Assembly (NCBI GenBank): GCA_013044195.1
Contig: JABEUV010000114.1
Coordinates: 1 to 62,764 of the forward strand
DNA length: 62,764 nucleotides
Direction: 5' to 3'
Source of the DNA: Elusimicrobiota bacterium
Lineage (GTDB): Bacteria; Elusimicrobiota; Elusimicrobia; UBA1565; UBA9628
The notes under the pieces were generated by a model, which made no database searches, had not been told where the DNA came from, and worked only from the letters and a program-made list of their open reading frames with translations. The translations under genes were made by a program, and so were the position numbers. Of the stretch, positions 6,229-57,204 are shown piece after piece (within the stretch, counting starts at the first letter, position 1; each line of letters starts with the position of its first letter).

Positions 6229-6311
6229 GGGCGCGGCCGGGGCCGCGCGCGCGGCCAGAGCCGCGGCGAGGATCAGCAGACCGCGGCGCGCTGAACGCGC
6301 GGAGAAAAACT

Positions 6312-28052: not shown

Positions 28053-28087
28053 AATGTTGCTAGACTCAATATGAGGTTCGTGCTTAT

Positions 28088-28116
28088 ATTGTAGCGCTTC
28101 GCGAAAGCAAGACCAA
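28088..28116 (-). promoter_or_regulatory. Candidate sigma-70 promoter for the kinase/regulator operon (TTGGTC - 17 nt - TACAAT on the minus strand)
   Basis: The minus strand reads TTGGTC ttgctttcgcgaagcgc TACAAT, ending about 35 nt upstream of the ATG at 28052. It is in the 71-nt divergent gap shared with the rpoN-like gene. Confidence 0.4.
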
Positions 28117-41757: not shown

Positions 41758-43091
41758 ACGGCGAGGCGCCTAAGCCGGCGGCGTTCCGGGGCAGCGGGCC
41801 TTTTCTGCGTACCGCGCCGCCTCTGTGGCTGCCTCTACGCCACTTCGCGCTGGCGTCCGCGGCGCTGCTGGTCTTCGCGGGCGGTGTCGCCTGGCGCGGA
41901 GGGGATTTGGTCGGTTTTGATTTCAACGCGCGCTTCGCGCTGGGGCTGGTGCACGTCTTGACGCTGGGCTGGGTCGCGCAAACCATTCTAGGAGCTTGGT
42001 GCCAGATGCTGCCGACGCACGGGGAGACGCCGCTGGCGTTTCCGCGGATCGCGACGGCCGGCTGGTGGCTCTTCGCGCTGGGTGCGGCGGCGTATGTCGG
42101 CGCGCTGTGGGGCGGAATTGAGCGCTATTGGGTCCCGGTGTCGGCCGCCGCGGCCGGGCTGGCGCTGGAGCTTTTCGCGCTGGCCGCCACGCACGCGCGC
42201 GCGCGAAAGCGCGATGAGACGTGGCTTCATTTTGCCGCGGCGCTGGGTTGGCTGGCCGCGCTGGCGACGGCCGGCGTGCTGCTGGCCTACGACCGCGAGC
42301 GCGGGCTGCTGTTTGGCGACCCGGAGGGCGCGTTGATCGCGCACGTGCACATGGCGCTGATCGGCTTCGTGGCGACGGCGATCTACGGCGCGGGCCGCCG
42401 CCTGATTCCGTGGGTCGCGCTGAGCCAGGTCCGCGGGCGCTGGGCGGGACGCGCGAGCTTCGCTTTGACGCAGTTGGGTCTGGCGGGGCTCGCGCTTGAT
42501 GCCTTGTTCTTCGGCCGTCGGCTGATGCCGCTCTGGGCGCTCCTGATCGCGGCGGGCTTCGTTTTGTATGCGCTCCAACTGGGACCGCTGTTTGGCGGCG
42601 GCGCGTCGTTTGAGCCGTCCTTGGCGTTGACCTTGCTGTCGTTTGCCGGCGGCGTCTTATGGGCGGCGCTCGGCCTGGGGCTGGCGTTCGGACGCTTCGC
42701 CGACGCGGCGCCGGCGCGCGCGGCCTACGTCTGGGCGGCGCTCGTCGGCTGCGTGACGCCGATGATCCTGGCCCAGGTCCACAAGATCGCGCCGTTTTTG
42801 GTCTGGCTGCACGTCTACAGCCCGCGCGATTGGACGCCGCCGGTCAAGGTTCCCAAGATCGACGATCTGACCAGCCGCGGCTTGGCGTGGGCGGAGTTCT
42901 TCGCGCTGGCCGTCGCAGCACCCCTGGGAACGGCGGGTTTATGGTTGGAGCGCGGCGGGCTGGTGCGGGCGGCCGGCTTCTGCCTATCCGCGGCGGCCGC
43001 GGGCTACGCCTGGAATCTCGGTCTAGCTCTGCGGCACGTCGTGCGCCCCGACGGGCGCTGGACGCTGCCGACGGTTCACGCGGGAGAATAA
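41754..43091 (+). CDS. 12-TM histidine-rich integral membrane protein, paralog A (possibly NnrS-like; family unassigned)
   Basis: The GTG at 41754 overlaps the upstream stop (GTGTGA). About 12 hydrophobic helices. Conserved LGLVHVLTLGW, ALIAHVHMALIGF, QVHKIAPFLVWLH. By eye, roughly 45-50% identical to the ORF at 43825-45135. Confidence 0.8.
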   Translation: MNGEAPKPAAFRGSGPFLRTAPPLWLPLRHFALASAALLVFAGGVAWRGGDLVGFDFNARFALGLVHVLTLGWVAQTILGAWCQMLPTHGETPLAFPRIATAGWWLFALGAAAYVGALWGGIERYWVPVSAAAAGLALELFALAATHARARKRDETWLHFAAALGWLAALATAGVLLAYDRERGLLFGDPEGALIAHVHMALIGFVATAIYGAGRRLIPWVALSQVRGRWAGRASFALTQLGLAGLALDALFFGRRLMPLWALLIAAGFVLYALQLGPLFGGGASFEPSLALTLLSFAGGVLWAALGLGLAFGRFADAAPARAAYVWAALVGCVTPMILAQVHKIAPFLVWLHVYSPRDWTPPVKVPKIDDLTSRGLAWAEFFALAVAAPLGTAGLWLERGGLVRAAGFCLSAAAAGYAWNLGLALRHVVRPDGRWTLPTVHAGE

Positions 43092-43852: not shown

Positions 43853-45135
43853 GCTCCCTCCCGAATGAGAAACGATAGGCTCAGTCCCGTGTTGACGGCG
43901 TAAAGTGTGGCGGTCGCCAGGAGGAACAAGGATCCCGCGCGCAGCAGCGTCTGTGATCCCATCAGGAAGCCCGCGGTCCCGAGCGCGACGGCGGGGACCA
44001 TGGCGAAAAATTCCACCCAGGCAAGCCTTTCGCTGGCCAACTCCGTCATCTTGGGAGGAGGGCTCTTCGCAGTCCAGGGGCGGCTGCCGAACAGGTGCAG
44101 CCAGACGAGGAAAGGCACGATCTTGTGGACCTGCCCCAGAATGAACGGCGTGGCCCAGCCCACGAGGGCGGCGTAAATATAAGCGGCCAGGATGTTGGCG
44201 TCGTCGCGCAGAAACCCGAACGCAAGCCCGACGCCGAGCAAGACCCAGACCGCGCCGCCGGTCAAGGCGAGGAGCGTGTAGGCGAGGGCCGGGTCGATGC
44301 GCCGGTTGCGCGCGGAAAAAATTCGCCGCATCTGCCAGGCGTAGGCTGCGTAGGCCGCCGCGAGCAGGCACGCCCAGAGGGGCAGCAGCCGGCGGCCGAA
44401 GAATAGACCGTCCGCCGTCAACCCGGCGAGGCCCGCGAGCGTCAGGACCAGCGCAAGCCTCCCCGGCGTCTTGGAGTCCACGTGCGCGAGCGCGAACATC
44501 GCGACCAGTCGGTACGACACGCCGACGATCGTCAGCGACACCCAGCCCACGAGGGCCAGATGAACGTGCGCGATCAGCGCGCCGTGCGGATCATGAAAGA
44601 GTATGCCGCGTTCGCGGTCCCAGGCCAGCATCAACCCCAGCGCGATCACCGCGGCGAGGAGCGAAATCGAGACGGCGAGGTGGCGCGCCGTCCAGTCCAG
44701 ACGGGGGGCCAGGATCATCGTGCGCGCAAAGCAGGCGAGATAGACTCCGACGGACCCGACGAGCAGGACCGCCGCAATCCAATAGCGGCTTCCGCCCAGC
44801 CACAGCTCCCCGACGAAGCCAGAGAGCCCCAGGATGAAGGCCCACCATGCCCAACGTGCGGCCTCCGGCCAAGCCAGAGGCGTTTCCCAGAGCACGGCCG
44901 AAAGCTGGCAGATCGCCCCGAAGATCGTCATCGTGATCCAGCCCAACGTCAGGACGTGAACCAGGCCGAGGACCCATTCGGCCCGGAAGCCGAAGTCCAG
45001 GAAGCGGTCCGTTCCCCACGCGAACGCGGCCGCGAAAATCCAGAAGGCGACGGCCGCGGCGGCGAAGTGCCGCATCGGCAGGTCGATCGGCGGGGATTTG
45101 GCGAGATTGAGGGGCGGGGCGGACGCCGTGCTCAT
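43825..45135 (-). CDS. 12-TM histidine-rich integral membrane protein, paralog B
   Basis: 436 aa with the same motifs as paralog A (LGLVHVLTLGW identical; ALIAHVHLALVGW; QVHKIVPFLVWLH). The start overlaps the upstream stop (ATGA). Confidence 0.8.
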   Translation of the reverse strand: MSTASAPPLNLAKSPPIDLPMRHFAAAAVAFWIFAAAFAWGTDRFLDFGFRAEWVLGLVHVLTLGWITMTIFGAICQLSAVLWETPLAWPEAARWAWWAFILGLSGFVGELWLGGSRYWIAAVLLVGSVGVYLACFARTMILAPRLDWTARHLAVSISLLAAVIALGLMLAWDRERGILFHDPHGALIAHVHLALVGWVSLTIVGVSYRLVAMFALAHVDSKTPGRLALVLTLAGLAGLTADGLFFGRRLLPLWACLLAAAYAAYAWQMRRIFSARNRRIDPALAYTLLALTGGAVWVLLGVGLAFGFLRDDANILAAYIYAALVGWATPFILGQVHKIVPFLVWLHLFGSRPWTAKSPPPKMTELASERLAWVEFFAMVPAVALGTAGFLMGSQTLLRAGSLFLLATATLYAVNTGLSLSFLIREGAWTKTSAPR

Positions 45136-46177: not shown

Positions 46178-46735
46178 TCAGTGTCCGTGACCGCCGCAGC
46201 CGCAGCCGCCGGAGCGAGCGGCCTTCTTGTGGAAATAGACCTTCCAGTCGTCCTCGGCGAGGCGTTCCGCCCAGGCCTCGAAGCCTTTGCCGCCCAGCAG
46301 TTGATACAGCGGGCGCGGCTCGAAAATCGCGCGCAATACGAATACGCCGCCCTCCGCGGTCTGCGTCGCCGCGGCCATGATCTTGGGGAAAGGTTCCAAG
46401 CCCGCGCGCAGATCTTCACGAACGTCGACGACATTCGCCGAGTCGGGCTTGGCCCATGCCGGACGCGCCGTTTCGGCGCCCGGGGCCGCCGCGCCCGAGC
46501 CCGCCGCCACGCGCTTGATCAGCACGGACCACTGCTCCGGACCCTTCTCGACGGCCGTCCACTCGAACTCGCCCGCGCGCTCGGCGCTGAACTCGTAGAA
46601 AAGCGGCTTAGGATCATGGTCGTTGACGAGCTTGAGCGCTTTCCCGACGGGGAGCTCTTCCCAGGCCTTGAAAATCTTCGGGTGCCTCTCGCGCGGCGGC
46701 ATCGATCTCACGTCGACCAGCACTTCTTGCTCCAT
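46178..46735 (-). CDS. Double DUF2249-like protein with C-terminal Cys/His tail
   Basis: First half: RHPKIFKAWEELPVGKALKLVNDHDPKPLFYEF. The second half resembles the 45132-45371 product. It ends ...SGGCGCGGHGH. Confidence 0.78.
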   Translation of the reverse strand: MEQEVLVDVRSMPPRERHPKIFKAWEELPVGKALKLVNDHDPKPLFYEFSAERAGEFEWTAVEKGPEQWSVLIKRVAAGSGAAAPGAETARPAWAKPDSANVVDVREDLRAGLEPFPKIMAAATQTAEGGVFVLRAIFEPRPLYQLLGGKGFEAWAERLAEDDWKVYFHKKAARSGGCGCGGHGH

Positions 46736-46929
46736 GTCGTCCTCCTCGCGGCGAATGCGCCGCTGGTCAAAGGCTAGCAGGGAACCGGCCGATCAAATAT
46801 GCGCTGGCGTAGGATTTAACGACGCCGCCGTTGCGCGCGCGCGGCGCCGCGGGTGCCGCGACCGGTTCAGCCTCCATTCTTAACGCGACAATATCCGTCC
46901 TGACCATCTCGGCCGCGACGTTCGAGCGT

Positions 46930-47053
46930 GCGAACAGGGCGTTCCTATCCATGTGATGATAATGAAGACTCGATTCTGGGCTCTTTGACATCTCGTGAAG
47001 GCTGTTTTCGGCATGGCGCGCCGAGCGCGATAAGATCACAATAATAGCAAGCG
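46930..47053 (+). repeat. Conserved ~120-nt element, copy A, upstream of the plus-strand gene at 47130
   Basis: Hand alignment with the reverse complement of 51941-52061 gives 75 of 93 core positions identical without indels. Perfect blocks are TTCCTATCCAT, GATTCTGGGCTCTTTGAC and GTTTTCGGCATGGCGC. Confidence 0.85.
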
Positions 47054-47129
47054 ATTCGGGGGGGCCGGAGTTGCTCCCCCGGTGCGGTCCGAGGGCGCTC
47101 TGTCGGGTGAAGCAAATGGAGTCTGAATA

Positions 47130-47432
47130 ATGCCGAAATCTTCTTGGTGTCTGCTTTTACCCAGCGAGGGGGGTTCATTCGCGGCGGCGACGCGCGTCGT
47201 GGAGAAACAGATTGAGCTGTACTACGCCTCGGCCTCGAGTTTTGGCGAGAGCGACCTGGCGGAATTCTTGGGCGGCGTCCATGAAGAAGCGGGAGAGATC
47301 GCGGCGGAACGGGCAAGGGAAGGCGTGCCGGTGGATGATATCGCTGCGGAGCTTGTTTTTTTCCTGAACAAGGCGATCTTCCGCGCAAGAAGGCGGCGGC
47401 CTACGGCGCTGCGAACGCCGCGCGGTTCTTAA
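47130..47432 (+). CDS. Hypothetical protein (100 aa)
   Basis: ORF with GGAG 11 nt upstream, followed 4 nt later by the CheY-like gene. No family recognised. Confidence 0.45.
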   Translation: MPKSSWCLLLPSEGGSFAAATRVVEKQIELYYASASSFGESDLAEFLGGVHEEAGEIAAERAREGVPVDDIAAELVFFLNKAIFRARRRRPTALRTPRGS

Positions 47433-47436
47433 GGGC

Positions 47437-47823
47437 ATGGCCTTCCTCCTTGTCGTCGACGATGATGCCGACGTGTTGGATTTGCTCGATTGGCATTGCC
47501 GTGAGCGCGGGCATGCGGTCGCCGTCGCCTCGTCTTGCGAAAAGGCATTGACTTGGCTGCGCGTCGCCCGGCCGCCTCGCCTGATCCTGCTCGATTTCTT
47601 TCTGCCGAAGATGGACGGGGCCTGTTTCGTCGAGTTGTTGCGCGCCGGCGAATCAACCAGGGCGATCCCGGTGATTATTATGAGCGCCGCCTCGCCGGAT
47701 TGGGTTGCGCGGAGACTCGTCCCCGACCCCCTCGTGCGGGTGGTATGCAAGCCTTTCGACTTCGCGAGTCTGGATCGGATGATCGAAGAATCGATGTCTG
47801 CGTCCGGCGCGGAGGGTGATTAG
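47437..47823 (+). CDS. Single-domain response regulator (CheY-like receiver)
   Basis: LLVVDDDADVL..., phospho-acceptor LILLDFFLPKMDG, and conserved KPF near the C-terminus. Confidence 0.88.
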   Translation: MAFLLVVDDDADVLDLLDWHCRERGHAVAVASSCEKALTWLRVARPPRLILLDFFLPKMDGACFVELLRAGESTRAIPVIIMSAASPDWVARRLVPDPLVRVVCKPFDFASLDRMIEESMSASGAEGD

Positions 47824-47827
47824 CGCG

Positions 47828-48685
47828 TCAGAAATCAAAAAACTTGAAAGCATTCAGTTCGATGCCGACCAAGGCCGTGTCGGGGCCCTTGCGGCAGGTC
47901 CTCAGGATCGCGGACCCGTGGAACGCGTCGCTCAGCCGGACGCTGTACGCTTGGAATTCGCTCAGCGAGCAGCGCAGAACGTAGGATTTGCAGAACAGCC
48001 GCCGTCCGCTCGGCTTTTGCAGTTCCCGCCACAATCCCGTGAGCTTCCCGTAGGCCTGGACCAGACGCGGATCGTTCGTGTTATTGGAGACCATGATTTT
48101 TTCGGGCCCGGGGCACCAGAAGCGGCCCGTCGCGTCCCGCTTGAGGATGCCCGCGGATTTCAACTGCTCCGCGGCCTTGCGGACTTTCTCCGGGTCGAGC
48201 TTGAGCAGGCCCGCCAAATCCCCGGGGCTCCAGCGCCGCAGGTCGTTGGAGAGTATTTCATAAACGCCGTACGCCGCCGGGCTCGAGCAGTAGGCGAGCA
48301 CCTGCTGCGCGGAAATCGGGCGCGAGTTTTCCCGGGCGTGCCGTACGAGCGCGCTCTGGATATCCGGCTCTTGGTTGTGTCCGCCCTTGAGCCACGCGGA
48401 GCGCAGCAGGTCCATGAGATCGGCCGGGAATTTCTGCCGGAAGTACTCCTCCAGCAGGCGCCGCGCCGAGTCCAGGTCCTCGCGAAACCCCAGCGCCGCG
48501 CACACCGCCGCCAGGAGCCGCTCGCTGGGCCCGCAGCGGCCTTTCTCGACGTTCGCGTAATGGCGGTAGGTGCAGCCGAAGTGCCCCGCGCCGCCGGCGG
48601 TCCTGTAGAACTTCCTGGCCGAGGCGAATCCCCTCTCCTCGCGCATGTTGACCAGCATCAATCCGAAACGGCCCCAATCTTCCAT
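47828..48685 (-). CDS. HTH-like N-terminus plus DUF4423-like region (recalls the TIGR02147 family)
   Basis: The ATG at 48685 is preceded by GGAGGAG. 285 aa. N-terminus: RGFASARKFYRTAGG...YRHYANVEKGRCGPSERLL. The family call is from memory and unverified. Confidence 0.55.
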   Translation of the reverse strand: MEDWGRFGLMLVNMREERGFASARKFYRTAGGAGHFGCTYRHYANVEKGRCGPSERLLAAVCAALGFREDLDSARRLLEEYFRQKFPADLMDLLRSAWLKGGHNQEPDIQSALVRHARENSRPISAQQVLAYCSSPAAYGVYEILSNDLRRWSPGDLAGLLKLDPEKVRKAAEQLKSAGILKRDATGRFWCPGPEKIMVSNNTNDPRLVQAYGKLTGLWRELQKPSGRRLFCKSYVLRCSLSEFQAYSVRLSDAFHGSAILRTCRKGPDTALVGIELNAFKFFDF

Positions 48686-48738
48686 TGCTCCTCCGAAATA
48701 CCGCCGCCCGGACATTCTCTCAAATGCCGCCGCGCTCT

Positions 48739-49074
48739 TCACGGCGCGACGGTCAGCTGGCAGGCCGCGCCGGCGCCGTACGGCGCGGCGGCGACCGTGA
48801 CGCCTGCGGCGGTCGCGCACGCGCAGGAGCAGCCGCCGCCCGCGCAGGCCACCCCCGCCGCGGACGCGCAACTGGCGCCCGCCAGCGCCCACGCGGCCGC
48901 CACTTGATCGAGCGCCGACTGCGCGGAGACGTCCTGCGTCGCGCGGTCGACGGCACCGGAGGTTTCCCGCGCGGCCTGCAGCCGCCAGCGCAGGGTCATG
49001 GCCGTGATGAGGCACAGAATCACGATCACGACGAGCGTCGACGCCATCACTTGGCCGCGCGGAGCTTTCGTCAT
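48739..49074 (-). CDS. Pilin-like small protein (hydrophobic N-terminal helix, Cys/Ala/Gly-rich C-terminus)
   Basis: MTKAPRGQVMASTLVVIVILCLITAMTL. The start overlaps the upstream stop (ATGA). Confidence 0.5.
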   Translation of the reverse strand: MTKAPRGQVMASTLVVIVILCLITAMTLRWRLQAARETSGAVDRATQDVSAQSALDQVAAAWALAGASCASAAGVACAGGGCSCACATAAGVTVAAAPYGAGAACQLTVAP

Positions 49075-49622
49075 TGGTTCGTCCCGGCCGCCGCGTTGAA
49101 CGCGATCGTCTCGTCGACGCTTTGAGATTGGGTCTGCGGTCCCGTCTGCGCCGAGACCAGATAAGCGAATCGGACGGCGCCTGCCGACGGCCGCGAGAAA
49201 TACCACGGCGATGCCGGGTCGTGGGACACTCCCGCGGCGATCGCCAGGCCGCCCGCGGCCGCGCAGGTCGTCGGCGGCATGGGACAGCCGGGGGAGCGGT
49301 AAAAATAAAGGACCCCGCCGCTCTCGCAGAACTGGAATGCTTCCACGGTCGCGGCCGGGTCCATCGGGCCCAGCCTCTGGTCGTAGTTCAGGCAACCGAG
49401 CAGCAAGTCGGACGTCTGGCCGGTCGCGGCCGGCGTATCGACCTCGGTCGCCTGGCGCAGTTCCATCTCCACGGCGCGCCAGGCCATGTAAGCGTCGCCC
49501 TGCACGCGCGTTTGTCGAACGTCGACGATTTGCTGGCGCACCGAGACCGTCAGGACGTCCATTCCCGCGGCCAGCACCGTCGCGCCCAGCGACAGCGCGA
49601 TGACGACTTCCATCAAGTTCAT
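49071..49622 (-). CDS. Pilin-like protein whose Met1 begins a mature-pilin-like N-terminus (MNLMEVVIAL, Glu at position 5)
   Basis: Start is fixed by the upstream stop at 49630 and GAGG 5 nt upstream. There is no leader peptide or Gly at -1. 183 aa. Confidence 0.55.
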   Translation of the reverse strand: MNLMEVVIALSLGATVLAAGMDVLTVSVRQQIVDVRQTRVQGDAYMAWRAVEMELRQATEVDTPAATGQTSDLLLGCLNYDQRLGPMDPAATVEAFQFCESGGVLYFYRSPGCPMPPTTCAAAGGLAIAAGVSHDPASPWYFSRPSAGAVRFAYLVSAQTGPQTQSQSVDETIAFNAAAGTNQ

Positions 49623-49629
49623 CGCGGCC

Positions 49630-50136
49630 TCACGGCGGCTCCTGCCACGTCACGCTGAAGGCGACGGTCGGCTGCGGCCCCAGCGCCGTGGGCGTCGTCG
49701 TCACCGTATAAGAGACCGCCCCTCCCAGCGCCGCCAGCTCCGGCGCCCACGCGGCGGCGCTGAGCGGGTGCGCTCCCGCTTGGAGCGCGTAGCAGCCGCA
49801 GGCGTCGCCCGGCAGCCCCCAGCCGTTGGGCGCGACGCCCGGTCCCGCGACCAAGGCGGTGTCGGCCGTCACGTATGCCTTCAGCGCCTGCGAGACGCGC
49901 CGGACGACCTGCGCCGCCGCCGCCCGCCTTTGCGTTCTTCCCACCGATTGCCGGTCCGTCACCAGCGCGCTCAGAACGCCGCTTGCCGCGACCAGGAGCA
50001 GGAGCATCGCGACGACGACCTCGACGAGCAGGTGGCCCGCGTCGCGCCTTCGGCGGCGGCCGGCGATGGAACTTTTTGCGCCCCTCGCGCGTATATAAAG
50101 GACGGCCCTTGGGCCTTTCGACCCTGGCGCCGACAT
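49630..50136 (-). CDS. Prepilin-type protein (long basic leader, G|HLLVEVVVAMLLLL, Glu +5)
   Basis: MSAPGSKGPRAVLYIRARGAKSSIAGRRRRRDAG then HLLVEVVVAM... is a class III signal-like arrangement. ATG at 50136. Confidence 0.6.
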   Translation of the reverse strand: MSAPGSKGPRAVLYIRARGAKSSIAGRRRRRDAGHLLVEVVVAMLLLLVAASGVLSALVTDRQSVGRTQRRAAAAQVVRRVSQALKAYVTADTALVAGPGVAPNGWGLPGDACGCYALQAGAHPLSAAAWAPELAALGGAVSYTVTTTPTALGPQPTVAFSVTWQEPP

Positions 50137-50160
50137 ATTCTCAGGAGGTATCATCCGCTT

Positions 50161-50475
50161 ATGTCCGATCTTGGTTCCGATTCCGCCCCGGCCACGAAGG
50201 CCGACCTCGCCGCCGTGAAGTCCGAACTGAAGTCCGACATCGCCGCGTCCACCAGGCGCTTGGCCCATGAGATCGTCAAGACCAACGCCCGCGTCGACCG
50301 CCTGGGCGACGACCTTCGCGGCGAGATGCGCGCGCTACGCGGCGACGTCGCCAAGACGATGGACGCCGCCGTCTCCCGCATGGAGACCCTCTGGCGGGAG
50401 TCCGCCCTCCTGCCCGGAATCATCGACGACCACGACCGCCGCATCTCCGCCCTGGAAACCCGCGCTTTGCGTTGA
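50161..50475 (+). CDS. Small coiled-coil protein
   Basis: 104 aa with heptad-like charged repeats. AGGAGG lies 12 nt upstream of the ATG at 50161. Confidence 0.5.
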   Translation: MSDLGSDSAPATKADLAAVKSELKSDIAASTRRLAHEIVKTNARVDRLGDDLRGEMRALRGDVAKTMDAAVSRMETLWRESALLPGIIDDHDRRISALETRALR

Positions 50476-50505
50476 GCGTCCGGACGAGCGCGTCACAGGC
50501 CCATC

Positions 50506-50946
50506 TCAACGCTTCACCGCCCGTTTTTTCTTGCTTTTCTCGAACGCGCGCATGGCGCCCTCCATTTTCTTCTGGAACTCCGGCGTGGAGAAGATCGCCT
50601 GCGACAGCCTTTGCTCCGCCTGGAACTCCGGATTTTCCTGGATGTCCCGCTCCTGCTGCAGCAACGGAATCATGTCCGACGTCGCCTCGTCCTTGTCGAT
50701 GTCGCCCCTGACGAAGCCCGCCGAAACCTCGGCGATTTTTGCCTCGGCCTCCCGCAGCCGCTCCTGAAAAACGCAGAACTCCGGATCCGCCGCCTTCATG
50801 ATCCGCTCTTGAACCTTCTGCATCTCGATCATTTCCGGCGCGGCCGTTATTTGCGGCGGCTCGAACGTCTGCGCTGTAAGAAATCCGGCCGTCGCCGGAA
50901 ACAATCCCGCGATCAAAACGAACCGCCCCGGTTTACGCATCGTCAT
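50506..50946 (-). CDS. Exported helical hypothetical protein
   Basis: MTMRKPGRFVLIAGLFPATAGFLTAQ is a signal peptide. GGAGGAGG lies upstream. The sequence is Glu/Lys/Gln-rich. Confidence 0.55.
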   Translation of the reverse strand: MTMRKPGRFVLIAGLFPATAGFLTAQTFEPPQITAAPEMIEMQKVQERIMKAADPEFCVFQERLREAEAKIAEVSAGFVRGDIDKDEATSDMIPLLQQERDIQENPEFQAEQRLSQAIFSTPEFQKKMEGAMRAFEKSKKKRAVKR

Positions 50947-50954
50947 CCTCCTCC

Positions 50955-51899
50955 TCATCTTTTGTAGCACCTGTTCAGGTGCGCGCCGTAGCCGCCGTTT
51001 TCGTAAGTCTGCATATTCAGAACCCAGCCGGGAGCGCAGGCCGTCGGCTCGCAAATAAACGTGTATACCCCGCCCCAGCAAAAGCACGCCGTCGCCGGAA
51101 AGACCGGAGTCCAGCCCGGGCAATCGCCGCCTTGCGTTCCACTCACGGCTCCCCCAAGGGAACCCCAGGCGGCTCCATCGCACACTTCGGCGGCGCCGCT
51201 GGAGGAATTCCAACGCAGCGTCCCCGCCTTGGAGGCGGTGCAGGCGGCGGTGTCATCCCCCAGTTGAACGCCGCCGGCGACGGAGAGCCGCGAGGCGGGT
51301 GCATTGGTACCCACTCCGACGTTGCCATTTCCTCCAAAAACTACGGCTTCCTGCGTTGCGTTATTGTTCAGGGGGCCAGCATAGAGACTGAGTCTCTCAC
51401 TCGGAAGTTGAACGTCATTTACACCAAACCAGAATCTCCAAGAGTCGTCCGACACGTTAAATTCAAGTTTCGGATGGTCATTCCCGTTATTCCCCAAAGT
51501 CACCCCGGTACGGTCGCCGGGCAGACTGTGGGTAATGCTAGCCTGTCGAGACGATTTGATTGAGCCGGTGACCTCAAGAGGGTAGACGGGAATTGTCGTT
51601 CCGATGCCTACCATTCCGGATGCGTTCGTCGGCGGAACCAGGATGGTATTGCCGGCGTTGCGATTGAGGGTGGTGTCGGCCGGGGTCGCGCCGGAGTTTC
51701 CGGTCGTGACGATTTGATTGTAGACGCCGGCCGGGATGGGGTAGGTCGCCGTCATGGTCAACTGCTGGGAGTAAAGCACGCCCGACGCCGCGCCGAGGGC
51801 GACAAGGGCCGCCAGCAACAGGCAGGCCTTCCGGTCCACGACGATCGTCACGCGTCTTGAATCCTGGTTCCCCGGACTTTTTTCCCCGAACATCATCAC
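50955..51899 (-). CDS. Exported tail-fibre-like protein with Cys-rich C-terminal domain
   Basis: TM/signal segment, then repeated motifs GMVGIGTTIPVYPLEVTG and GNVGVGTNAPASRLSVAG, then C..KAGTLRWNSSSGAAEVCDGAAW. The C-terminus has CPGW...CAPGW. The coding DNA is visibly less GC-rich than its neighbours. Confidence 0.62.
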   Translation of the reverse strand: MMMFGEKSPGNQDSRRVTIVVDRKACLLLAALVALGAASGVLYSQQLTMTATYPIPAGVYNQIVTTGNSGATPADTTLNRNAGNTILVPPTNASGMVGIGTTIPVYPLEVTGSIKSSRQASITHSLPGDRTGVTLGNNGNDHPKLEFNVSDDSWRFWFGVNDVQLPSERLSLYAGPLNNNATQEAVVFGGNGNVGVGTNAPASRLSVAGGVQLGDDTAACTASKAGTLRWNSSSGAAEVCDGAAWGSLGGAVSGTQGGDCPGWTPVFPATACFCWGGVYTFICEPTACAPGWVLNMQTYENGGYGAHLNRCYKR

Positions 51900-51940
51900 C
51901 CTCCGCCCGGCGCATTGAAATCCCCTCGGCGCTTACTATC

Positions 51941-52061
51941 GTAATTGTACGCAGGCCGGTGCGCCATGCCGAAAACGGCCCTCATGCGGGGTCAAAGAGC
52001 CCAGAATCAGGACTTCATAAACGTCGAATGGATAGGAATTCCTTGTTCGCGCGACTCAACA
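51941..52061 (-). repeat. Conserved ~120-nt element, copy B, upstream of the minus-strand gene starting at 51899
   Basis: The reverse complement aligns to 46930-47053 (see copy A). It has the same orientation relative to its downstream gene. Confidence 0.85.
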
Positions 52062-52160: not shown

Positions 52161-54026
52161 ATGCGGCGGATCAATTTGTTCTTCGGCGGCCTCGTTATTC
52201 TTCTGTCCGGTGGAGCCGCCGCGCAGATGCGGGTCGACGTTCCGGCCGATGTCCGGCTGGCCGCGTCGGCGCCGGGCGTTTCCGCGTTGGCCCCGACGCT
52301 GCCGACGGCCGGACCGCTGGCGGCGGCCGCGCCCGCGCGCACGGCTCCCATTTTTTCTCCCTCGTCCGTCGCGATTGGCCCGACGGCGGCTGCGACGGAC
52401 CCCGCGGCCTCCGTCGCGAATGCTCTTGAAGACGGCGGCGCGCGCGGTGCGGCAATGGCTCCGGCCGCCGCGGCGGTTCCCGCCTATGGACGCGGCGGAT
52501 CCGTCGGCGCGGCGCATGCGCAGGCCGCGGCTTTATTCGACGGCGGTCGCCCGCTCAACGTGCTGATGGCGGGCGCCGAGGCGGTGCCGTTCATCAAGAC
52601 GGGAGGGCTTGCCGACGTCGTCGACGCGCTTTCCCGCGGCTTGGCCGAACGCGGCCATCGCGTCGTGCTGGTCTTGCCTAAATACCGGGCGCTCAAGCTG
52701 GACGGGGTGGCGCTTTCGCGCGCGGGCGAGGTTTCGGTTCCGATGGGCGGCCGCAACGAGACCGCCCGTCTCTGGAAGGCGAAGGTCGGCGGCGTCGACC
52801 TCGTGCTTCTGGATCATGAGGGATATTACGACCGTCCGGGAGGCCCCTACCAGGGCAAGACGTCGGTTTACGCAGACGACGACAACGCCGAGCGCTTTGC
52901 GTTCTATTCGCGCGCGGCCTTGGAGGCCGCACGGGCTCTGGGTTTCAAGCCGGACATCGCGCACGCGCACGACTGGCATGCCGGCCTCATGGCGGCCTAC
53001 CTCAAGCTGACCTACGGCAACGATCCGTTTTTTGCGGCGACGCGCTCCGTCGTCACGATCCATAATCTTGCGTTTCAAGGCGTCTATCCGATCGAGGCGG
53101 CCGCGCGCGCCGGCTTCTCGGGCGAACAGGCGGCGCCCATGGGCCCGTTGGAATACTGGGGCGGCATCAGCTATCTGAAGGGAGGCTTGGCGCTTGCCGA
53201 CGCGGTCACGACGGTCAGTCCGACTTACGCGCGCGAAATTCGGGAGAAATCCGAGTTCGGCATGGGCCTGGAGGGCGTGCTCAACGCGCGCTCCGACGGC
53301 GTGCTCGGCATACTCAACGGCCTGGACCCGGAGCTCAACGACCCGCGTACGGACGCTCATATCGCCCGCAATTACGGCTCCGGGGACGTCGCCGAGGGCA
53401 AGGCCGCGAACAAGGCGTGGCTCCAGCGGCGGCTTGGGCTTGAGCAACGGCTGGGCGCGCCGTTATTCGTGGTCGCTTCGCGCTTGGCGGCACAAAAGGG
53501 AATCGACCTCGTCCTCGAGTCCATCGACGAGCTTGTCGCCCGCGGAGCGCAGGTCGTCGTGACCGGGTCCGGCGATGCGGCTCTGGAGGAGAGCCTTGCG
53601 GCGGCCGTCGCGCGGCATCCGGGTCAGGTCGCGGCTCATCCGTTCGACGAGATATTCGTTCACGCGGTCTATGCCGCGGCCGATTTTCTGCTGATGCCCT
53701 CGCGCTTTGAGCCGTGCGGACTGTCCCAGCTCATCGCGCATCGCTACGGCGCCTTGCCGATCGTCACCCCCACCGGCGGCTTGGTCGACACGGTTCGTGA
53801 CCTGCGCCTCGACGCTTCGCGCGGGGATGGCATCATGATGCGCGAGTTCTCCGTGCGCGGTCTCGTCGAGGCCGTCGAGGCCGCGATCGCCGCCTATCGC
53901 CGCCCCGCCTCTCTCTCGGCGGCGCGCGCGACCGCGATGGGCAATGACTCGTCTTGGGGTTCCGCGCTCGACGCGTACGTCGCGCTCTACCGCAGACTGA
54001 CCGGCGCTGCGGAGTCGGCGCGTTGA
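52161..54026 (+). CDS. glgA: Glycogen/starch synthase (GT5) with ~130-aa N-terminal signal-like + Ala/Pro-rich extension
   Basis: The catalytic core starts near 52560 (NVLMAGAEAVPFIKTGGLADVV). The ORF is open from the ATG at 52161 (MRRINLFFGGLVILLSGGAAAQ). The start is uncertain; GTG 52560 or ATG 52566 are alternatives. Confidence 0.9.
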   Translation: MRRINLFFGGLVILLSGGAAAQMRVDVPADVRLAASAPGVSALAPTLPTAGPLAAAAPARTAPIFSPSSVAIGPTAAATDPAASVANALEDGGARGAAMAPAAAAVPAYGRGGSVGAAHAQAAALFDGGRPLNVLMAGAEAVPFIKTGGLADVVDALSRGLAERGHRVVLVLPKYRALKLDGVALSRAGEVSVPMGGRNETARLWKAKVGGVDLVLLDHEGYYDRPGGPYQGKTSVYADDDNAERFAFYSRAALEAARALGFKPDIAHAHDWHAGLMAAYLKLTYGNDPFFAATRSVVTIHNLAFQGVYPIEAAARAGFSGEQAAPMGPLEYWGGISYLKGGLALADAVTTVSPTYAREIREKSEFGMGLEGVLNARSDGVLGILNGLDPELNDPRTDAHIARNYGSGDVAEGKAANKAWLQRRLGLEQRLGAPLFVVASRLAAQKGIDLVLESIDELVARGAQVVVTGSGDAALEESLAAAVARHPGQVAAHPFDEIFVHAVYAAADFLLMPSRFEPCGLSQLIAHRYGALPIVTPTGGLVDTVRDLRLDASRGDGIMMREFSVRGLVEAVEAAIAAYRRPASLSAARATAMGNDSSWGSALDAYVALYRRLTGAAESAR

Positions 54027-54067: not shown

Positions 54068-55603
54068 ATGAAATTGGGAACCCGCGGTTGCGGACTGCTT
54101 TTGCATCCGACGTCTCTGCCGGGGCCGCACGGCGTCGGCGACCTCGGTGCGCCGACGCGGAAGTTCGTCGAGACGCTGGCCGCCTGCGGGCAGTCGTGGT
54201 GGCAGATGCTGCCGGTCGCGCCGCCGGGCGGCTGCCGCTCGCCGTATAACGCGGTCTCGGCGTTCGCGGGCAGTCCGCTGCTGCTGAGCCTGGACGCGCT
54301 CGTCGAGGAGGGCTTCCTGTCGCGCGCCGACGCGCAGGCGCCGGATTTTCCCGCCGACCGCGTGGATTTCGCCGCGGCGGAGGGCTTCAAGCTGCCGCGT
54401 CTGCTCAAGGCGCATGAGAATTTTTCCGCGCGCGCGTCCTCGGCGGCGAAGGCTGAACTTGAGTCCTTCTGCGCCGAGCAGAGGGAATGGCTGGAAGATT
54501 ACGCTCTGTTCTCCGCTTTGCGGCAGGCCCACGGCGGCGCGCCGTGGACGACATGGGACGAGGGTCTGCGCGCGCGCCGTCCGGCGGCGCTGGCGAACGC
54601 ACGCAAAGGCCTGGACGAGCCTATCCGCTTCCACCGCTTCGTTCAGTTTCAGTTCGCGCGCCAATGGGACGCCCTGCGCCGACTGTGCGCCGAGAAAGGC
54701 GTGGGCCTGATCGGCGACATCCCCATTTTCGTGGCGCACGACAGCGCCGACGTCTGGGCCAACCCGGGGTTGTTCTGGCTGGATAAGAAAGGCCTCCGGC
54801 TCAAGGTCGCGGGCGTGCCGCCGGACTACTTCAGCAAGACCGGCCAGCTGTGGGGCAACCCGTTGTACCGCTGGGACGCGATGCGCAAGGACGGCTACAA
54901 GTGGTGGGTCGAGCGCCTGCGTTCGGCCTTCGGGCGTTTCGACGCGGTCCGACTGGATCATTTCATCGGCTTTCACAACTACTGGGAGATCCCGGCCGAC
55001 TCGCCGACGGCCGAGCGCGGGCGCTGGGTGCTGGGCCCCGGCGCCGCGCTGTTCGAGCGGGCGCGCAAGGTCTTGGGCGAACTGCCGTTGATCGCCGAGG
55101 ACCTGGGTGTCGTGACCGAGGAGGTCAAGTCTTTGCGCGACCGCTGCGGTTTCCCGGGGCTCAAGGTCCTGCTGATGGCCTTCGGCACCGACCCCGAGGC
55201 CGACAGCTACAAGCCCTACAGTTACCCGCGCCGCAGCGTCGTCTACACCGGCACGCACGACAACGATACCGTCGCGGGCTGGTTCAACGACGCCGGTTCG
55301 GCGTCCAGCACGCGGACCGCCGACGAGGTCCGCGGCGAGCACGCCGCCGTCCTGCGCTACCTGGGAACCGACGGGCGGGACATCCATTGGGACATGATCC
55401 GCCTGGCGCTGTCGTCGGTCGCGGACACGGCGATCATCCCCGTGCAGGACGTGCTGGGCCTGGGCAGCGAGGCGCGCATGAACCTTCCCGGGACCGCGTC
55501 GGGAAACTGGGGCTGGCGGATGAGTCCGGGGGCGCTTGACGGCGCGCCGGGCACGAGGCTCTCGGAGATGACGGAAACCTTCGGCCGCCGTCCGGTCCGC
55601 TGA
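54068..55603 (+). CDS. malQ: 4-alpha-glucanotransferase (amylomaltase, GH77)
   Basis: 511 aa: GLLLHPTSLPGPHGVGDLG, DIPIFVAHDSADVW, RLDHFIGF. Full-length MalQ layout. Confidence 0.95.
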   Translation: MKLGTRGCGLLLHPTSLPGPHGVGDLGAPTRKFVETLAACGQSWWQMLPVAPPGGCRSPYNAVSAFAGSPLLLSLDALVEEGFLSRADAQAPDFPADRVDFAAAEGFKLPRLLKAHENFSARASSAAKAELESFCAEQREWLEDYALFSALRQAHGGAPWTTWDEGLRARRPAALANARKGLDEPIRFHRFVQFQFARQWDALRRLCAEKGVGLIGDIPIFVAHDSADVWANPGLFWLDKKGLRLKVAGVPPDYFSKTGQLWGNPLYRWDAMRKDGYKWWVERLRSAFGRFDAVRLDHFIGFHNYWEIPADSPTAERGRWVLGPGAALFERARKVLGELPLIAEDLGVVTEEVKSLRDRCGFPGLKVLLMAFGTDPEADSYKPYSYPRRSVVYTGTHDNDTVAGWFNDAGSASSTRTADEVRGEHAAVLRYLGTDGRDIHWDMIRLALSSVADTAIIPVQDVLGLGSEARMNLPGTASGNWGWRMSPGALDGAPGTRLSEMTETFGRRPVR

Positions 55604-55605
55604 TC
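55551..55605 (+). repeat. Direct repeat copy 1 (authentic 3' end of malQ including its stop)
   Basis: 55 nt, 52 of them identical to 57150-57204. Confidence 0.9.
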
Positions 55606-55723
55606 CCCCCAGTCGGCACGTTCGCGCCCGGATGAGTCGAATTTTGGCGCGGCCGCCGGCAGAAGTGAGCTGATTTCTCCTGCTTTGTTGGCGTGCGGCG
55701 ACAGTTTCTGGAGGGAAGCCTAT

Positions 55724-57061
55724 ATGAAGACCGCTTCGATGTTCATTCTCGTCTCGTTGGCGCAGACGCTCGCGTTGCCGGTTGGCGCGGCGAATTCGCA
55801 AGGCGAGGCCACGCCCCACGGCTGCGAGCCGAGCAATGTCACGGCCACCTTCCTGGGCCACGCCATTCGCTACAGTTGTTTCGAAGGCGACAACTCTATC
55901 ACTGAACAACAGTTGATTAATCGACAACAGTCGCAGGGAGGACAGATAAACGGTTCCGCGAGAGGAGCAAGCTCGCGCGGCTCGTCGTATGATCCTACGA
56001 GCGGAATGAGGATCGCGTTTTCTCCCGATCCGAAATGCCGGTTCGCGGCGGGGACGACGATGGAACTTCGCAATCCCTGCTTGCTGATCAGCGACAATGA
56101 CCAGGATATCCTGCCCAAGTATGCGATTGGCTACGTGAACAGATGCTTCCCGAATGGGGGAAAAGTATACACGTTGGGAGCCTGCGTTGCCTCGTATCAC
56201 CGCAAAGCGGGGGCCCACCACACATCGGGGTCGCTCACCATTACTCGCTGGCCGTCGCCAACGCCGCTGCGAGGCTCCGGCGTGGTCGCCTTTCGCTTCT
56301 CGCCGGGCGCTACGGTCACGGGCTTCTACACGAAGATGGTCGGGTATATGCCGATCGAGACCGAGGTCGCGGTTGCGCTTGCGGGGTCGGCGAGCATGAA
56401 AGTTTCCTACTGGTCGCCACGCTTAAAGAAGAGCTCGAGCTCCAGCTCCAGCGCCGGAACCGCCGGTGGCGGAACCGCTGGCGGTGGCGAAACTGTTCTT
56501 GCGACGTACACTTCTGGGACCAATAGATTCCCAGCTCAAGCCATGGGGAAGAGCCTCACTTTTAAAGTTTGGGGCGGCGGCGGCGGGGGTGAAGACGGCA
56601 CCAACTACAATGGCGTTAGCGGCGGCGGCGGCGGCGGATATAACCAGACAACAATTCAAGTCAACTCCAGCGATGCGCAAGGGTTCACTGTCGTGGTTGG
56701 CGCCGGCGGCAAGGGCAATAGCAACGGCGGCGAGAGTTTGGTCATTAATAGCGTGGGGATGGGCATTATCTCCGCCAAGGGTGGCACGGGGGGCAGCACC
56801 TTTGCCAACACTCCTGCTCCTGGTGGGAGCGGGAGCATCGTGGGTGGTGCTGGAAGCCCCGGGACTAATACGACTGGTGGAGCGGGTGGGAATGGGGCCA
56901 ATGGCGGCGGAAGCGGCGGAACTGGCGCGGCGCAAAATCAAGACGGCATTAATGGCCTGTCTCCAGGAGGAGGAGGGGGAGGGGCGGGAGCTCTTGTTAG
57001 TGTCGGCTCCGATAAGGTCAGCAGCGGCGGCAATGGGGAAGTCATCATAGAGACGCCGTGA
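55724..57061 (+). CDS. Exported protein with C-terminal glycine-rich (tail-fibre-type) domain
   Basis: The ATG at 55724 follows GGAGGGA. Signal peptide MKTASMFILVSLAQTLALPVGA. The C-terminal ~200 aa contain GGGG/GxGG runs and end ...SSGGNGEVIIETP. The 5' half is visibly less GC-rich. Confidence 0.7.
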   Translation: MKTASMFILVSLAQTLALPVGAANSQGEATPHGCEPSNVTATFLGHAIRYSCFEGDNSITEQQLINRQQSQGGQINGSARGASSRGSSYDPTSGMRIAFSPDPKCRFAAGTTMELRNPCLLISDNDQDILPKYAIGYVNRCFPNGGKVYTLGACVASYHRKAGAHHTSGSLTITRWPSPTPLRGSGVVAFRFSPGATVTGFYTKMVGYMPIETEVAVALAGSASMKVSYWSPRLKKSSSSSSSAGTAGGGTAGGGETVLATYTSGTNRFPAQAMGKSLTFKVWGGGGGGEDGTNYNGVSGGGGGGYNQTTIQVNSSDAQGFTVVVGAGGKGNSNGGESLVINSVGMGIISAKGGTGGSTFANTPAPGGSGSIVGGAGSPGTNTTGGAGGNGANGGGSGGTGAAQNQDGINGLSPGGGGGGAGALVSVGSDKVSSGGNGEVIIETP

Positions 57062-57149
57062 ATCCGGCATGGGAAACGCATCGAATTTCTCGGATTTTGG
57101 CGATGGTTTTGGAACCCCGCTGGCGCGCCGCGCGCATGGCCCAGTCTCG

Positions 57150-57204
57150 GCATGAGGCTTTCGGAGATGACGGAAACCTTCGGCCGCCGCCCGGTCCGCT
57201 GATC
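57150..57204 (+). repeat. Direct repeat copy 2 (orphan malQ 3'-end remnant abutting the MFS gene stop)
   Basis: Same 55-mer with 3 mismatches. Its TGA directly abuts the TCA (stop) of the convergent MFS gene. Confidence 0.9.

Follow-up and report, generated by a model that had tools for sequence, protein, structure and literature searches.

The 62,764-nt stretch from an uncultivated Elusimicrobiota bacterium analysed here (the window) carries two sequences, the arms, in inverted orientation around a 5.1-kb block of genes. We consider it probable, at roughly 60%, that the arms are paralogous copies of one promoter-plus-operator region of about 120 bp, each driving one convergent operon of a pilus-like (pseudopilin/adhesin) cluster. 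One regulator most likely switches both operons together via the arms, and the arrangement is most likely an ordinary one, not a mobile element.

The repeat search returned an inverted repeat of 120 nt with 75% complementary arms and 4887 nt between them; the window contains no longer repeat, whatever its type. An ungapped recount gave 90 identities out of 120 with 0 indels (P(>=90/120) = 3.6e-29, composition-based chance identity 0.26), indicating that the inverted pair is real and far beyond chance. Identity dropped to background within about 10 nt beyond 46920 and 47050. The best 93-nt core (46931-47023 versus 52049-51957) reproduced on recomputation exactly the 75 identities given in the preliminary description, and the perfect blocks named there, TTCCTATCCAT, GATTCTGGGCTCTTTGAC and GTTTTCGGCATGGCGC, were recovered as well. 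A second similar stretch that it reported, ACAAT..ATAG.AAGCG, is present, but only when a 3-nt gap is introduced; in the ungapped register these bases read TAAGATCACAATAATA / TACAATTACGATAGTA. Its statement that the window holds no other copy was borne out: nhmmer with a two-copy model found nothing more at E<1, the 18-mer with up to 3 mismatches had 2 matches in the window against 0.01 expected, and additional matches of the 16-mer were at chance level only. No copies were found in the plasmid, phage, viral, GTDB-genome and JGI-metagenome collections, and none further in 226 kb of related loci.

Both arms lie nearer to the inward than to the outward gene of their divergent intergenic regions, with 35 nt from the right arm to the start codon of p314 and 77 nt from the left arm to that of p100. 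Their polarity toward the inward-pointing ORF is identical (47130, plus; 51899, minus), as had been described. In the alignment, the best inward sigma-70-like matches of the two arms coincided in position (left, TCGGCA-17-TAAGAT, 8/12; right, TCGGCA-17-TACAAT, 9/12), and no outward candidate of at least 7/12 was found in the left region. The candidate -35 is poor, and the left site scores only 8/12. From these matches we infer transcription starts at about 47043-47050 (+) and 51937-51930 (-); another -10 that overlaps the first (CACAAT/TACGAT) is just as possible, which leaves the start site uncertain. In relatives, canonical TTGACA-17-TAnAnT promoters lie at a similar distance from the homologous genes. 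Since both arm regions are divergent, the outward genes (DUF2249 and glgA) may also have a role there.

Table 1. Positions of the arms, their conserved elements and the surrounding genes in the window
Feature	Position	Strand	Right-arm counterpart	Remarks
Left arm	46927..47046	+		Similarity traceable ~46922 to ~47053; in 394-nt divergent intergenic region, DUF2249 gene / ORF p100
Right arm	51934..52053	-		In 261-nt divergent intergenic region, adhesin-like p314 / glgA
Outermost block TCGAGCGTGCGAAC	46922-46935	+		Counterpart in L019, TCGAGCGTGTGAAC
Outer block GCGAACA	46931-46937	+	52049-52043 (-)
Outer block TTCCTATCCAT	46942-46952	+	52038-52028 (-)	11-nt perfect
Block B GATTCTGGGCTCTTTGAC	46972..46989	+	52008-51991 (-)	18-nt perfect
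Block C GTTTTCGGCATGGCGC	47004..47019	+	51976-51961 (-)	16-nt perfect
Candidate -35 hexamer TCGGCA	47008-47013	+	51972-51967 (-)	Inside block C
Candidate -10 hexamers, left arm	TAAGAT 47031-47036; CACAAT 47037-47042	+		Overlapping pair
Candidate -10 hexamers, right arm	TACAAT 51949-51944; TACGAT 51943-51938	-
Tandem-DUF2249 protein gene	46178..46735	-		Left outward flank
ORF p100	47130..47432	+		First ORF 3ʹ of left arm; source annotation 77 aa, GTG 47199
CheY-like response-regulator receiver, single-domain, 128 aa	47437..47823	+		Left operon, last gene
HTH_31 / DUF4423-like protein, 285 aa	47828..48685	-		Right operon, last gene
Pseudopilin-like p111	48739-49074	-
Pseudopilin-like p183	49071-49622	-
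Pseudopilin-like p168	49630-50137	-		Prepilin-like G|HLLVE motif
Coiled-coil ORF, 104 aa	50161..50475	+		Opposite strand within minus-strand operon; RBS GGAGG
p145, secreted protein	50506..50940	-		Right operon, second gene
p314, adhesin-like	50955..51899	-		First gene 3ʹ of right arm; start GTG 51899 or ATG 51893; SD GGAGGG
glgA with N-terminal extension	52161..54026	+		Right outward flank; malQ next

Conservation within the arms is concentrated in the perfect blocks of 18, 16 and 11 nt. These longest runs total 45 nt, so that mismatches are clustered (P = 0.010, one test on two copies). The centres of the three invariant blocks are spaced at 31-33 bp (roughly three turns of the helix), and block B would lie at about -72 to -55 from the inferred start. 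A rival view makes the arms a relic without function, left by an inverted segmental duplication or rearrangement that copied a promoter-sized piece; the two copies would now be decaying, with no more than one of them still a promoter. The cluster is clearly rearranged compared with its relatives, with one gene order in L016/L021/L024, another in L019/L007/L015 and a third in the window. The homologous L019 cluster and other parts of the window contain segmental duplications, an orphan ORF (p100) stands behind the left arm, and there are just two copies, with no close relative in which purifying selection could be seen. However, 25% divergence without an indel, the clustering of mismatches, a similarity that ends sharply on both sides and is confined to the promoter-proximal part of both intergenic regions, and blocks common to L019, another organism, make a relic unlikely.

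Conservation near start codons with equal polarity to the downstream gene would also suit arms that are transcribed as conserved cis-acting 5ʹ leaders or small RNAs, their blocks acting as RNA (in a riboswitch-like element, or in a leader that binds a protein or sRNA), and a hairpin follows the left arm at about 47056-47080. But this hairpin is missing at the right arm, neither strand folded better than shuffles (z-scores +1.0, +0.4, +1.2 and -0.3), and the consensus folds held 0 and 2 compensatory pairs and disagreed with the single-sequence folds. There was no consistent covariation and no conserved terminator in the arms, and Rfam gave zero matches for them, at the gathering score or at E<=1. 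By these computations the arms are not structured RNA, and we regard an RNA role as quite improbable.

The outward strand carries an open frame in both arms (...RHAEN..SKSPES.LH...MDRN.LFAR.N), and a gene caller placed a 61-aa gene at 46767-46952 (-) in one assembly, as if the arms encoded a small protein. Yet mismatches were distributed over the codon phases as 12/8/10 with no third-position excess, no start codon or ribosome-binding site was common to both arms, the products (61 versus 25 aa) differed wholly after 12 residues, and a GC3 of 0.54-0.73 is atypical for genes of this genome. As judged from these coding tests the arms are not coding, and a small protein is scarcely credible.

Two convergent operons make up the 5.1-kb "module", and their gene cluster is conserved in Elusimicrobiota. 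Many contigs from this group have CheY-like, adhesin-like, pseudopilin-like and DUF4423-like genes side by side, and on this comparison both operons belong to one conserved functional cluster. The pseudopilin-like trio is syntenic with homologues in L007, L015, L016, L019, L021, L024, L026, L027 and L028, and p145 homologues come after the adhesin-like gene in L005, L015, L019 and L027. The p314 family in Elusimicrobiota has an N-terminal TM helix, a constant domain of ~100 aa and a variable C-terminus. The HTH_31 / DUF4423-like protein, with both Pfam matches below gathering score and 58% identity to its L019 homologue, is a candidate DNA-binding regulator. The coding status of p100 is uncertain because it is an orphan with low GC3. 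The 104-aa coiled-coil ORF is where an independent Logan assembly is interrupted, on both sides.

The preliminary description offered two readings, and the second, degenerate terminal inverted repeats of a transposase-less cassette, would mean that a non-autonomous mobile cassette (mobile insertion cassette/foldback-like) had brought in the module. The arms do enclose a discrete block between unrelated surroundings, an NO-stress cluster on one side and glycogen genes on the other (the DUF2249 gene lies in a cluster also holding Crp, hemerythrin, ScdA and Rrf2 genes), GC3 of the end genes is lower (p100 0.67, CheY 0.75, p314 0.70) than that of their neighbours (0.82-0.90), and glgA has other neighbours in the closest relatives. 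Against this, the arm ends have no target-site duplication, conservation is strongest inside the arms rather than at their termini, no transposase, integrase, invertase or recombinase was found among the ORFs scanned over the whole 62.7-kb window, and the searches described above yielded no extra copies. Relatives carry the cluster without flanking inverted repeats, and the one collinear copy in L019 stands in promoter position. Mobile-cassette termini are therefore very unlikely.

Surface-structure loci are typical targets of inversion switches, and the arms, as inverted repeats with long perfect cores beside a variable adhesin-like family with some members annotated as Pfam Shufflon_N, could be the places where a programmed inversion crosses over. 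The perfect 16-18-bp blocks would then serve a recombinase from another locus in turning the 5.1-kb segment around, swapping which operon faces which outside region. However, two independent assemblies of the organism have the same orientation at both junctions with no break at the arms, and, as noted, the scan of the window found no recombinase. Moreover, a flip of the whole segment keeps each arm with its own operon, so that no obvious switch would result unless promoters lay outside the arms. We hold programmed inversion to be highly improbable.

The first reading, duplicated promoter/operator/leader regions under common control, fits all testable evidence, namely position, polarity, the shared sigma-70-like site, the blocks at fixed spacing, the lack of a coding or RNA-structure signal and a collinear relative. 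This relative belongs to the closest homologous cluster, L019/L020, on another Elusimicrobiota contig, where the operon is preceded by a weakly similar sequence that follows the arms collinearly and in their orientation: TCGAGCGTGtGAAC, 51 nt (against 52 in the window) and TTCTGGGCcgTTTGA..CCGC..GGGCCG. The match (p ~0.003-0.015 per arm) was the best among ~21 upstream regions tried and is moderately significant; nhmmer alone did not report it. L019 is the only place where TTCTGGGCnnTTTGA of block B was seen again, in front of the homologous operon, and neither TTCTGGGCnnTTTGA nor TGTTTTCGGCA occurred elsewhere in 252 kb of related sequence. L019 has no inverted partner of this copy and no convincing sigma-70 site at the aligned position. 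A separate repeated upstream element, lying next to DUF4423-like or pilin genes, has 6 copies in L023 and is present in L007, L027 and L028 as well, and repeated upstream regions thus appear habitual for these Elusimicrobiota clusters.

If the arms are promoter-plus-operator regions, the order toward the gene would be GCGAACA, TTCCTATCCAT, ATGAAG..GATTCTGGGCTCTTTGAC, GTTTTCGGCATGGCGC with the poor -35 TCGGCA, 17 bp, and TAnnAT as the -10, with transcription starting ~40 nt (right) or 85 nt (left) 5ʹ of the first start codon. The block spacing and the lack of indels suggest one or more proteins bound on one face of the DNA, which would activate or gate the weak core promoter. A signalling operon (p100-CheY) and a structural operon (p314, p145, the three pseudopilin-like genes and the HTH/DUF4423-like gene) would thereby be switched together. 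The HTH/DUF4423-like protein, whose gene closes the right operon, is the most economical candidate for such a binder, and the circuit would then be autoregulatory. We would expect the single-domain CheY-like protein to work through protein contacts, not on DNA.

Among known systems, the arms resemble the duplicated upstream regions of a regulon, such as activator-dependent sigma-70 promoters with upstream activator sites, in that one ~120-bp sequence stands 5ʹ of two transcription units of one functional cluster, with fixed polarity and distance class, strictly spaced blocks and a weak -35 that shares bases with one of the invariant blocks. They differ in that the invariant blocks (18 and 16 bp) lack the dyad or direct-repeat symmetry of known HTH operators, that no known motif was recognised in them, and that they are confined so far to one organism and one weak relative. 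Mobile insertion cassettes and MITE-like elements likewise place inverted repeats around a few kb of passenger genes without a transposase. Unlike these, the arms show neither multicopy spread nor IS-like termini, sit in promoter position, and enclose genes of a chromosomal cluster that is repeat-free in relatives. With fimS/FimBE, the Mpi-controlled invertible promoters of Bacteroides and the R64 shufflon/Rci, the locus shares inverted repeats at a pilus-like site with a variable adhesin-like family. Known invertible switches have a dedicated recombinase that turns over a promoter or coding cassette flanked by short repeats of 9-30 bp, whereas the 120-bp, 75%-identical arms here enclose entire operons, each with its own upstream region, in the single orientation seen. 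The L023-type element is similarly intergenic (~110-170 nt) and repeated with fixed polarity 5ʹ of several genes in clusters of this type; its 3ʹ end is promoter-like (TTGTTG-18-TACACT type), and its upstream core, ATAGnCCGATTGCCG, is invariant. Unlike the arms, to which it has no detectable homology (nhmmer E>0.2), it occurs in as many as 6 copies at one locus and shows conservation across several organisms.

The arms, two copies of a conserved element that bracket the 5.1-kb module, form a 120-nt inverted repeat with 75% complementarity and a spacer of 4887 nt, and this pair was the longest repeat of any kind within the 62.7-kb window. In the ungapped register, 90 of the 120 positions were identical (P(≥90/120) = 3.6e-29 at a composition-based chance identity of 0.26), and the similarity fell to the background level within about 10 nt beyond both ends. 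The preliminary description had reported a 93-nt core with 75 identities, which we recovered with its best window at 46931-47023 versus 52049-51957, and its three perfect blocks (A, B, and C) were found where it had placed them. The gene positions also bore out that both copies have the same polarity toward the inward gene, and a third copy was indeed absent from the window. Inside the blocks, only weak dyad or direct-repeat similarities were detected, and these were not relied on: TTCTGGGC and TTTTCGGC occur 32 nt apart, and GAAC-N5-GTTC is present in the left arm only. The mismatches between the arms were clustered, the three longest perfect runs totaling 45 nt, a value reached by 1.0% of permutations. 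On this one test, the arms have not decayed neutrally, and the lack of any indel in 120 nt at 25% divergence points the same way. Both features argue against the arms being a neutral relic of a duplication, an explanation that we regard as unlikely.

Both arms are located in divergent intergenic regions, nearer to the inward gene, and the interval between them consists of two convergent operons (see the table). In the left operon, a homologue search of 5.8 billion clustered proteins with p100, the first ORF, returned p100 itself only; its GC3 is 0.67, and its start in the source annotation is 23 codons further downstream. Given the orphan status and low GC3 of p100, the CheY-like receiver may be the only functional gene of this operon. 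The p100 ORF itself could be spurious or a gene of recent origin, or it could form part of a long leader in front of the CheY-like gene. In the right operon, the HTH_31/DUF4423-like protein gave Pfam matches below threshold only. Protein searches placed the window in Elusimicrobiota. The family of p314, the first product of this operon, is restricted to this phylum; its members combine a transmembrane helix with a constant N-terminal part (about 100 residues) and a C-terminus that varies, and contigs often carry several paralogues. The AlphaFold model of this family (pLDDT 59.5) was too poor for a structure search, and PDB sequence searches were uninformative.

Two further observations concern the arrangement of these operons. 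A coiled-coil ORF of 104 aa, which has a good ribosome-binding site, lies antisense midway in the pilin operon, 24 nt from the start of the divergent pseudopilin gene. Contigs of the separate Logan assembly of the same organism end at 50171 and 50428, both within this ORF, which suggests low coverage or polymorphism there. The convergent operons end 4 nt apart, with no terminator-like site between the two stops, so that converging transcription would collide or overlap.

Positions of the features discussed (window coordinates unless a related locus is named)
Feature	Position	Strand	Remarks
Left arm	46927-47046	+	
Right arm	51934-52053	-	
Block A, left arm	46942-46952	+	11 nt; predicted -102 to -92 from start
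Block B, left arm	46972-46989	+	18 nt; predicted -72 to -55
Block C, left arm	47004-47019	+	16 nt; predicted -40 to -25
Tandem-DUF2249 gene	46178-46735	-	outer border, left intergenic region
p100	47130-47432	+	left operon, first; inner border, left intergenic region
CheY-like receiver, single domain	47437-47823	+	left operon, second
p314 (314 aa)	50955-51899	-	right operon, first; inner border, right intergenic region
p145		-	right operon, second
Antisense coiled-coil ORF	50161-50475	+	between p145 and pseudopilin-like genes
Three pseudopilin-like genes	50137-48739	-	right operon, third to fifth
HTH_31/DUF4423-like gene	48685-47828	-	right operon, last
glgA	52161-54026	+	outer border, right intergenic region
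GlgA N-terminal extension	52161-52553	+	
Left inward promoter candidate	47008-47036	+	TCGGCA-17-TAAGAT, 8/12; 94 nt upstream of p100 start
Right inward promoter candidate	51972-51944	-	TCGGCA-17-TACAAT, 9/12; 45 nt upstream of p314 start
Predicted transcription start, left	47043-47050	+	
Predicted transcription start, right	51937-51930	-	
rpoN-like ORF	28124-29206	+	360 aa
ORF preceding rpoN-like ORF	27042-28094		
Direct repeat, 56 nt	55550-55605 / 57149-57204		95% identical
Gly_rich_2 ORF	55685-57061		about 445-458 aa
Two inverted repeats, ~96-116 nt	42466-42835 and 44072-44444		72-73%
L019 segmental repeats	5693-5809, 9493-9586, 10333-10380; 6126-6298, 9737-9909		in L019
L023 element	2867-3039, 3826-3992, 5397-5549, 6593-6775 (-), 7881-8068, 14288-14416		in L023
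L023-type element, other organisms	L007 2006-2168; L027 ~1749-1814; L028 ~1250-1330		

When 30 related loci were compared by tblastn, the module proteins repeatedly had the same partners. An adhesin-like gene adjoins three pseudopilin-like genes, either before or after them; a receiver gene is often just upstream (L003 and L016); and DUF4423-like genes are common in the vicinity (L007, L019, L021, L023, and L027). These recurring neighbors mark the module as a conserved chromosomal cluster, which in the window has the standard gene set in rearranged form and is not arbitrary cargo.

The alternative that the arms are the ends of a mobile cassette is very unlikely. No adjacent direct repeat was found that could represent a target-site duplication (flanks ...GTTCGAGCGT and GCGACTCAAC...), and neither Pfam scans nor precomputed Pfam calls detected a transposase, integrase, invertase, or tyrosine recombinase among the window ORFs. 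Further, the arms had no copies outside the window when 31 related loci and collections of plasmids, phages, viral sequences, GTDB genomes, and JGI metagenomes were searched. Blastn of the element against plasmids and phages and a looser block pattern against viral contigs gave zero matches, as did the exact two-block pattern in GTDB genomes and JGI metagenomes, a search in which the source organism's own copy likewise went unmatched. With nhmmer models of two or three copies, the 31 loci (226 kb) yielded the same organism only, L019/L020 being added once they were inside the model. The sole hint of a foreign origin is the lower GC3 of the genes at the module ends. In the glgA loci nearest to that of the window (77-79% identity), the neighbors differ on both sides, and since the relatives are rearranged, an "empty site" comparison is uninformative. 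That the arms are the sites of an inversion switch is rated lower still; no recombinase was detected among the window ORFs. Two independently assembled Logan contigs of the same organism matched both junctions at 100%, in one orientation, and neither junction is broken at an arm. It would likewise be surprising if the 5.1-kb block moved or flipped with the arms and their perfect 16-18-bp cores serving as recognition sites for an enzyme, a recombinase or a transposase, whose gene lies outside the window; if so, the whole pilus/adhesin module would be an invertible or mobilizable cassette of a kind undescribed in Elusimicrobiota. A generic dispersed repeat of the REP/BIME type was rejected, as there are two copies only, which are non-palindromic and have the same position relative to the cluster operons.

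We also considered whether the arms are expressed as protein or RNA. On the outward strand, a single frame is open across both arms, and a 61-aa gene was once called there by a gene caller. The two outward frames have no start codon or ribosome-binding site in common, their products diverge completely after 12 residues, and the 30 mismatches are split 12/8/10 by codon phase, so a coding sequence was rejected; a small ORF is barely credible. For an RNA-level leader, folding was no better than that of dinucleotide shuffles on either strand of either copy (z = +1.0, +0.4, +1.2, and -0.3), and no Rfam family matched the arms at the gathering score or at E<=1. The covariance analysis that had been proposed for the arms found 0 and 2 compensatory pairs in the consensus folds (alifold, both strands), giving no folding signal, and this explanation is improbable.

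A simple -35/-10 scan was applied to both intergenic regions in both directions. The best inward sigma-70-type candidates occupy the same aligned position in the two arms, and no outward candidate was found in the left intergenic region. With -35 elements that score 4/6, the match is weak. In relatives, promoters of the canonical TTGACA-17-TAnAnT type precede the homologous genes at comparable distances, indicating that the lineage does use sigma-70-type promoters, and the -35 of the window is comparatively poor against theirs. As a second, overlapping -10 is located 6 nt downstream (CACAAT on the left and TACGAT on the right), the predicted transcription starts are given as ranges, and the leaders would measure about 40 nt on the right and about 85 nt on the left. 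The centers of neighboring blocks lie 31 and 33.5 bp apart, about three helical turns, and a weak core promoter may thus be activated by a factor bound to one face of the helix; the HTH_31/DUF4423-like protein is the candidate binder.

Other promoter types were rejected by inspection. The sigma-54 pattern GG-N10-GC (TGGCAC-N5-TTGC) is not conserved in both arms: in AGGCTGTTTTCGGCA the GC is one base too near for the consensus, and TGGCGC-N5-GCGC gives a sigma-54-like fit in the left arm only. For ECF-type promoters, the spacing was wrong or not conserved between the arms. Elsewhere in the window, an rpoN-like ORF with a Sigma54_DBD domain and an HTH match is shorter than usual RpoN and follows an ORF with no Pfam match and lower GC3; rpoN may be split here, or of an unusual form.

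The cluster closest to that of the window is in L019/L020, where protein identities are 58% for the DUF4423-like, 55-71% for the pseudopilin-like, and 51% for the adhesin-like proteins. In L019, the first pseudopilin gene is preceded by a divergent region of 314 nt that contains TCGAGCGTGTGAAC in arm orientation, followed after 51 nt (52 in the window) by TTCTGGGCCGTTTGAAGTCCGCTTCGGGGCCG, and this pair is collinear with two parts of the arms, the outer block and the stretch that runs from block B into the beginning of block C. The similarity gave, for the two arms, p = 0.010 and 0.003 against dinucleotide shuffles and p = 0.015 and 0.012 against 2346 real windows, L019 being the best among about 21 upstream regions compared; the about 20 others showed no similarity to the arms. 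The L019 element is a single copy with no inverted partner. Its outer-block core, TGTGAACT, occurs three times in L019, 142-164 nt upstream of three transcription units, and four times in the whole data set, and TTCTGGGCnnTTTGA and TGTTTTCGGCA had no further occurrence in 252 kb of non-redundant related sequence. The resemblance is suggestive, not conclusive, that the arms descended from the native upstream regulatory region of the cluster.

The related loci also contain repeats of their own. L019 has two additional downstream copies of the DUF4423-like gene's 3' end (87-90% identity) and one additional copy of the beginning of the next gene (77%), and these look like cassette-like segmental duplications. 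A different intergenic element of ~110-170 nt is present in up to six copies in one Elusimicrobia MAG contig (L023) and recurs in three further organisms. Every copy precedes a gene in fixed polarity, beside DUF4423-like or pseudopilin genes. The element combines the invariant core ATAGnCCGATTGCCG with a 3' end that resembles a promoter of the TTGTTG-18-TACACT type; it had no Rfam match, and no homology to the arms of the window could be detected.

The window also contains other repeats. A direct repeat copies the malQ 3' end, including the stop, 1.6 kb downstream, around an ORF with a Gly_rich_2 domain, and looks like an att-like insertion into the malQ 3' end with target duplication. Two inverted repeats derive from two paralogous convergent membrane-protein genes (445 aa, +, and 436 aa, -), surrounded by DUF2249, hemerythrin, ScdA, Rrf2, and Crp genes that look like a nitric-oxide/oxidative-stress cluster. 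GlgA of this lineage has an N-terminal extension of ~130-180 residues that begins like a signal peptide and continues with an Ala/Pro-rich stretch, and which, judged from lengths of 600-676 aa, is present in nearly all of the closest Elusimicrobiota homologues (P0086-P0175).

Of the two readings offered in the preliminary description, that of a transposase-less mobile cassette found no duplication, enzyme, or further copies behind it, and that of duplicated promoter/operator regions is favored as the most likely. We estimate a probability of about 0.6 that the arms are paralogous promoter/operator regions coupling the expression of the two convergent operons of a pilus-like cluster. A plausible candidate regulator is the HTH/DUF4423-like protein of the same cluster. 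The arms would then be the first identified DNA target of the uncharacterized HTH/DUF4423 (TIGR02147-like) family, which we consider more likely than a moving or flipping unit. If so, they would provide a concrete cis-element, comprising three invariant blocks and a weak core promoter, for a pilus-like/adhesin cluster with a wide distribution across the uncultivated phylum Elusimicrobiota, and would nominate a binding partner from a family of which a full-text search turned up a mention in a single paper. This would be a modest gain for the study of regulation in a phylum with little experimental knowledge: the arms are a fresh instance of a familiar type of feature, not a new kind of genetic element.
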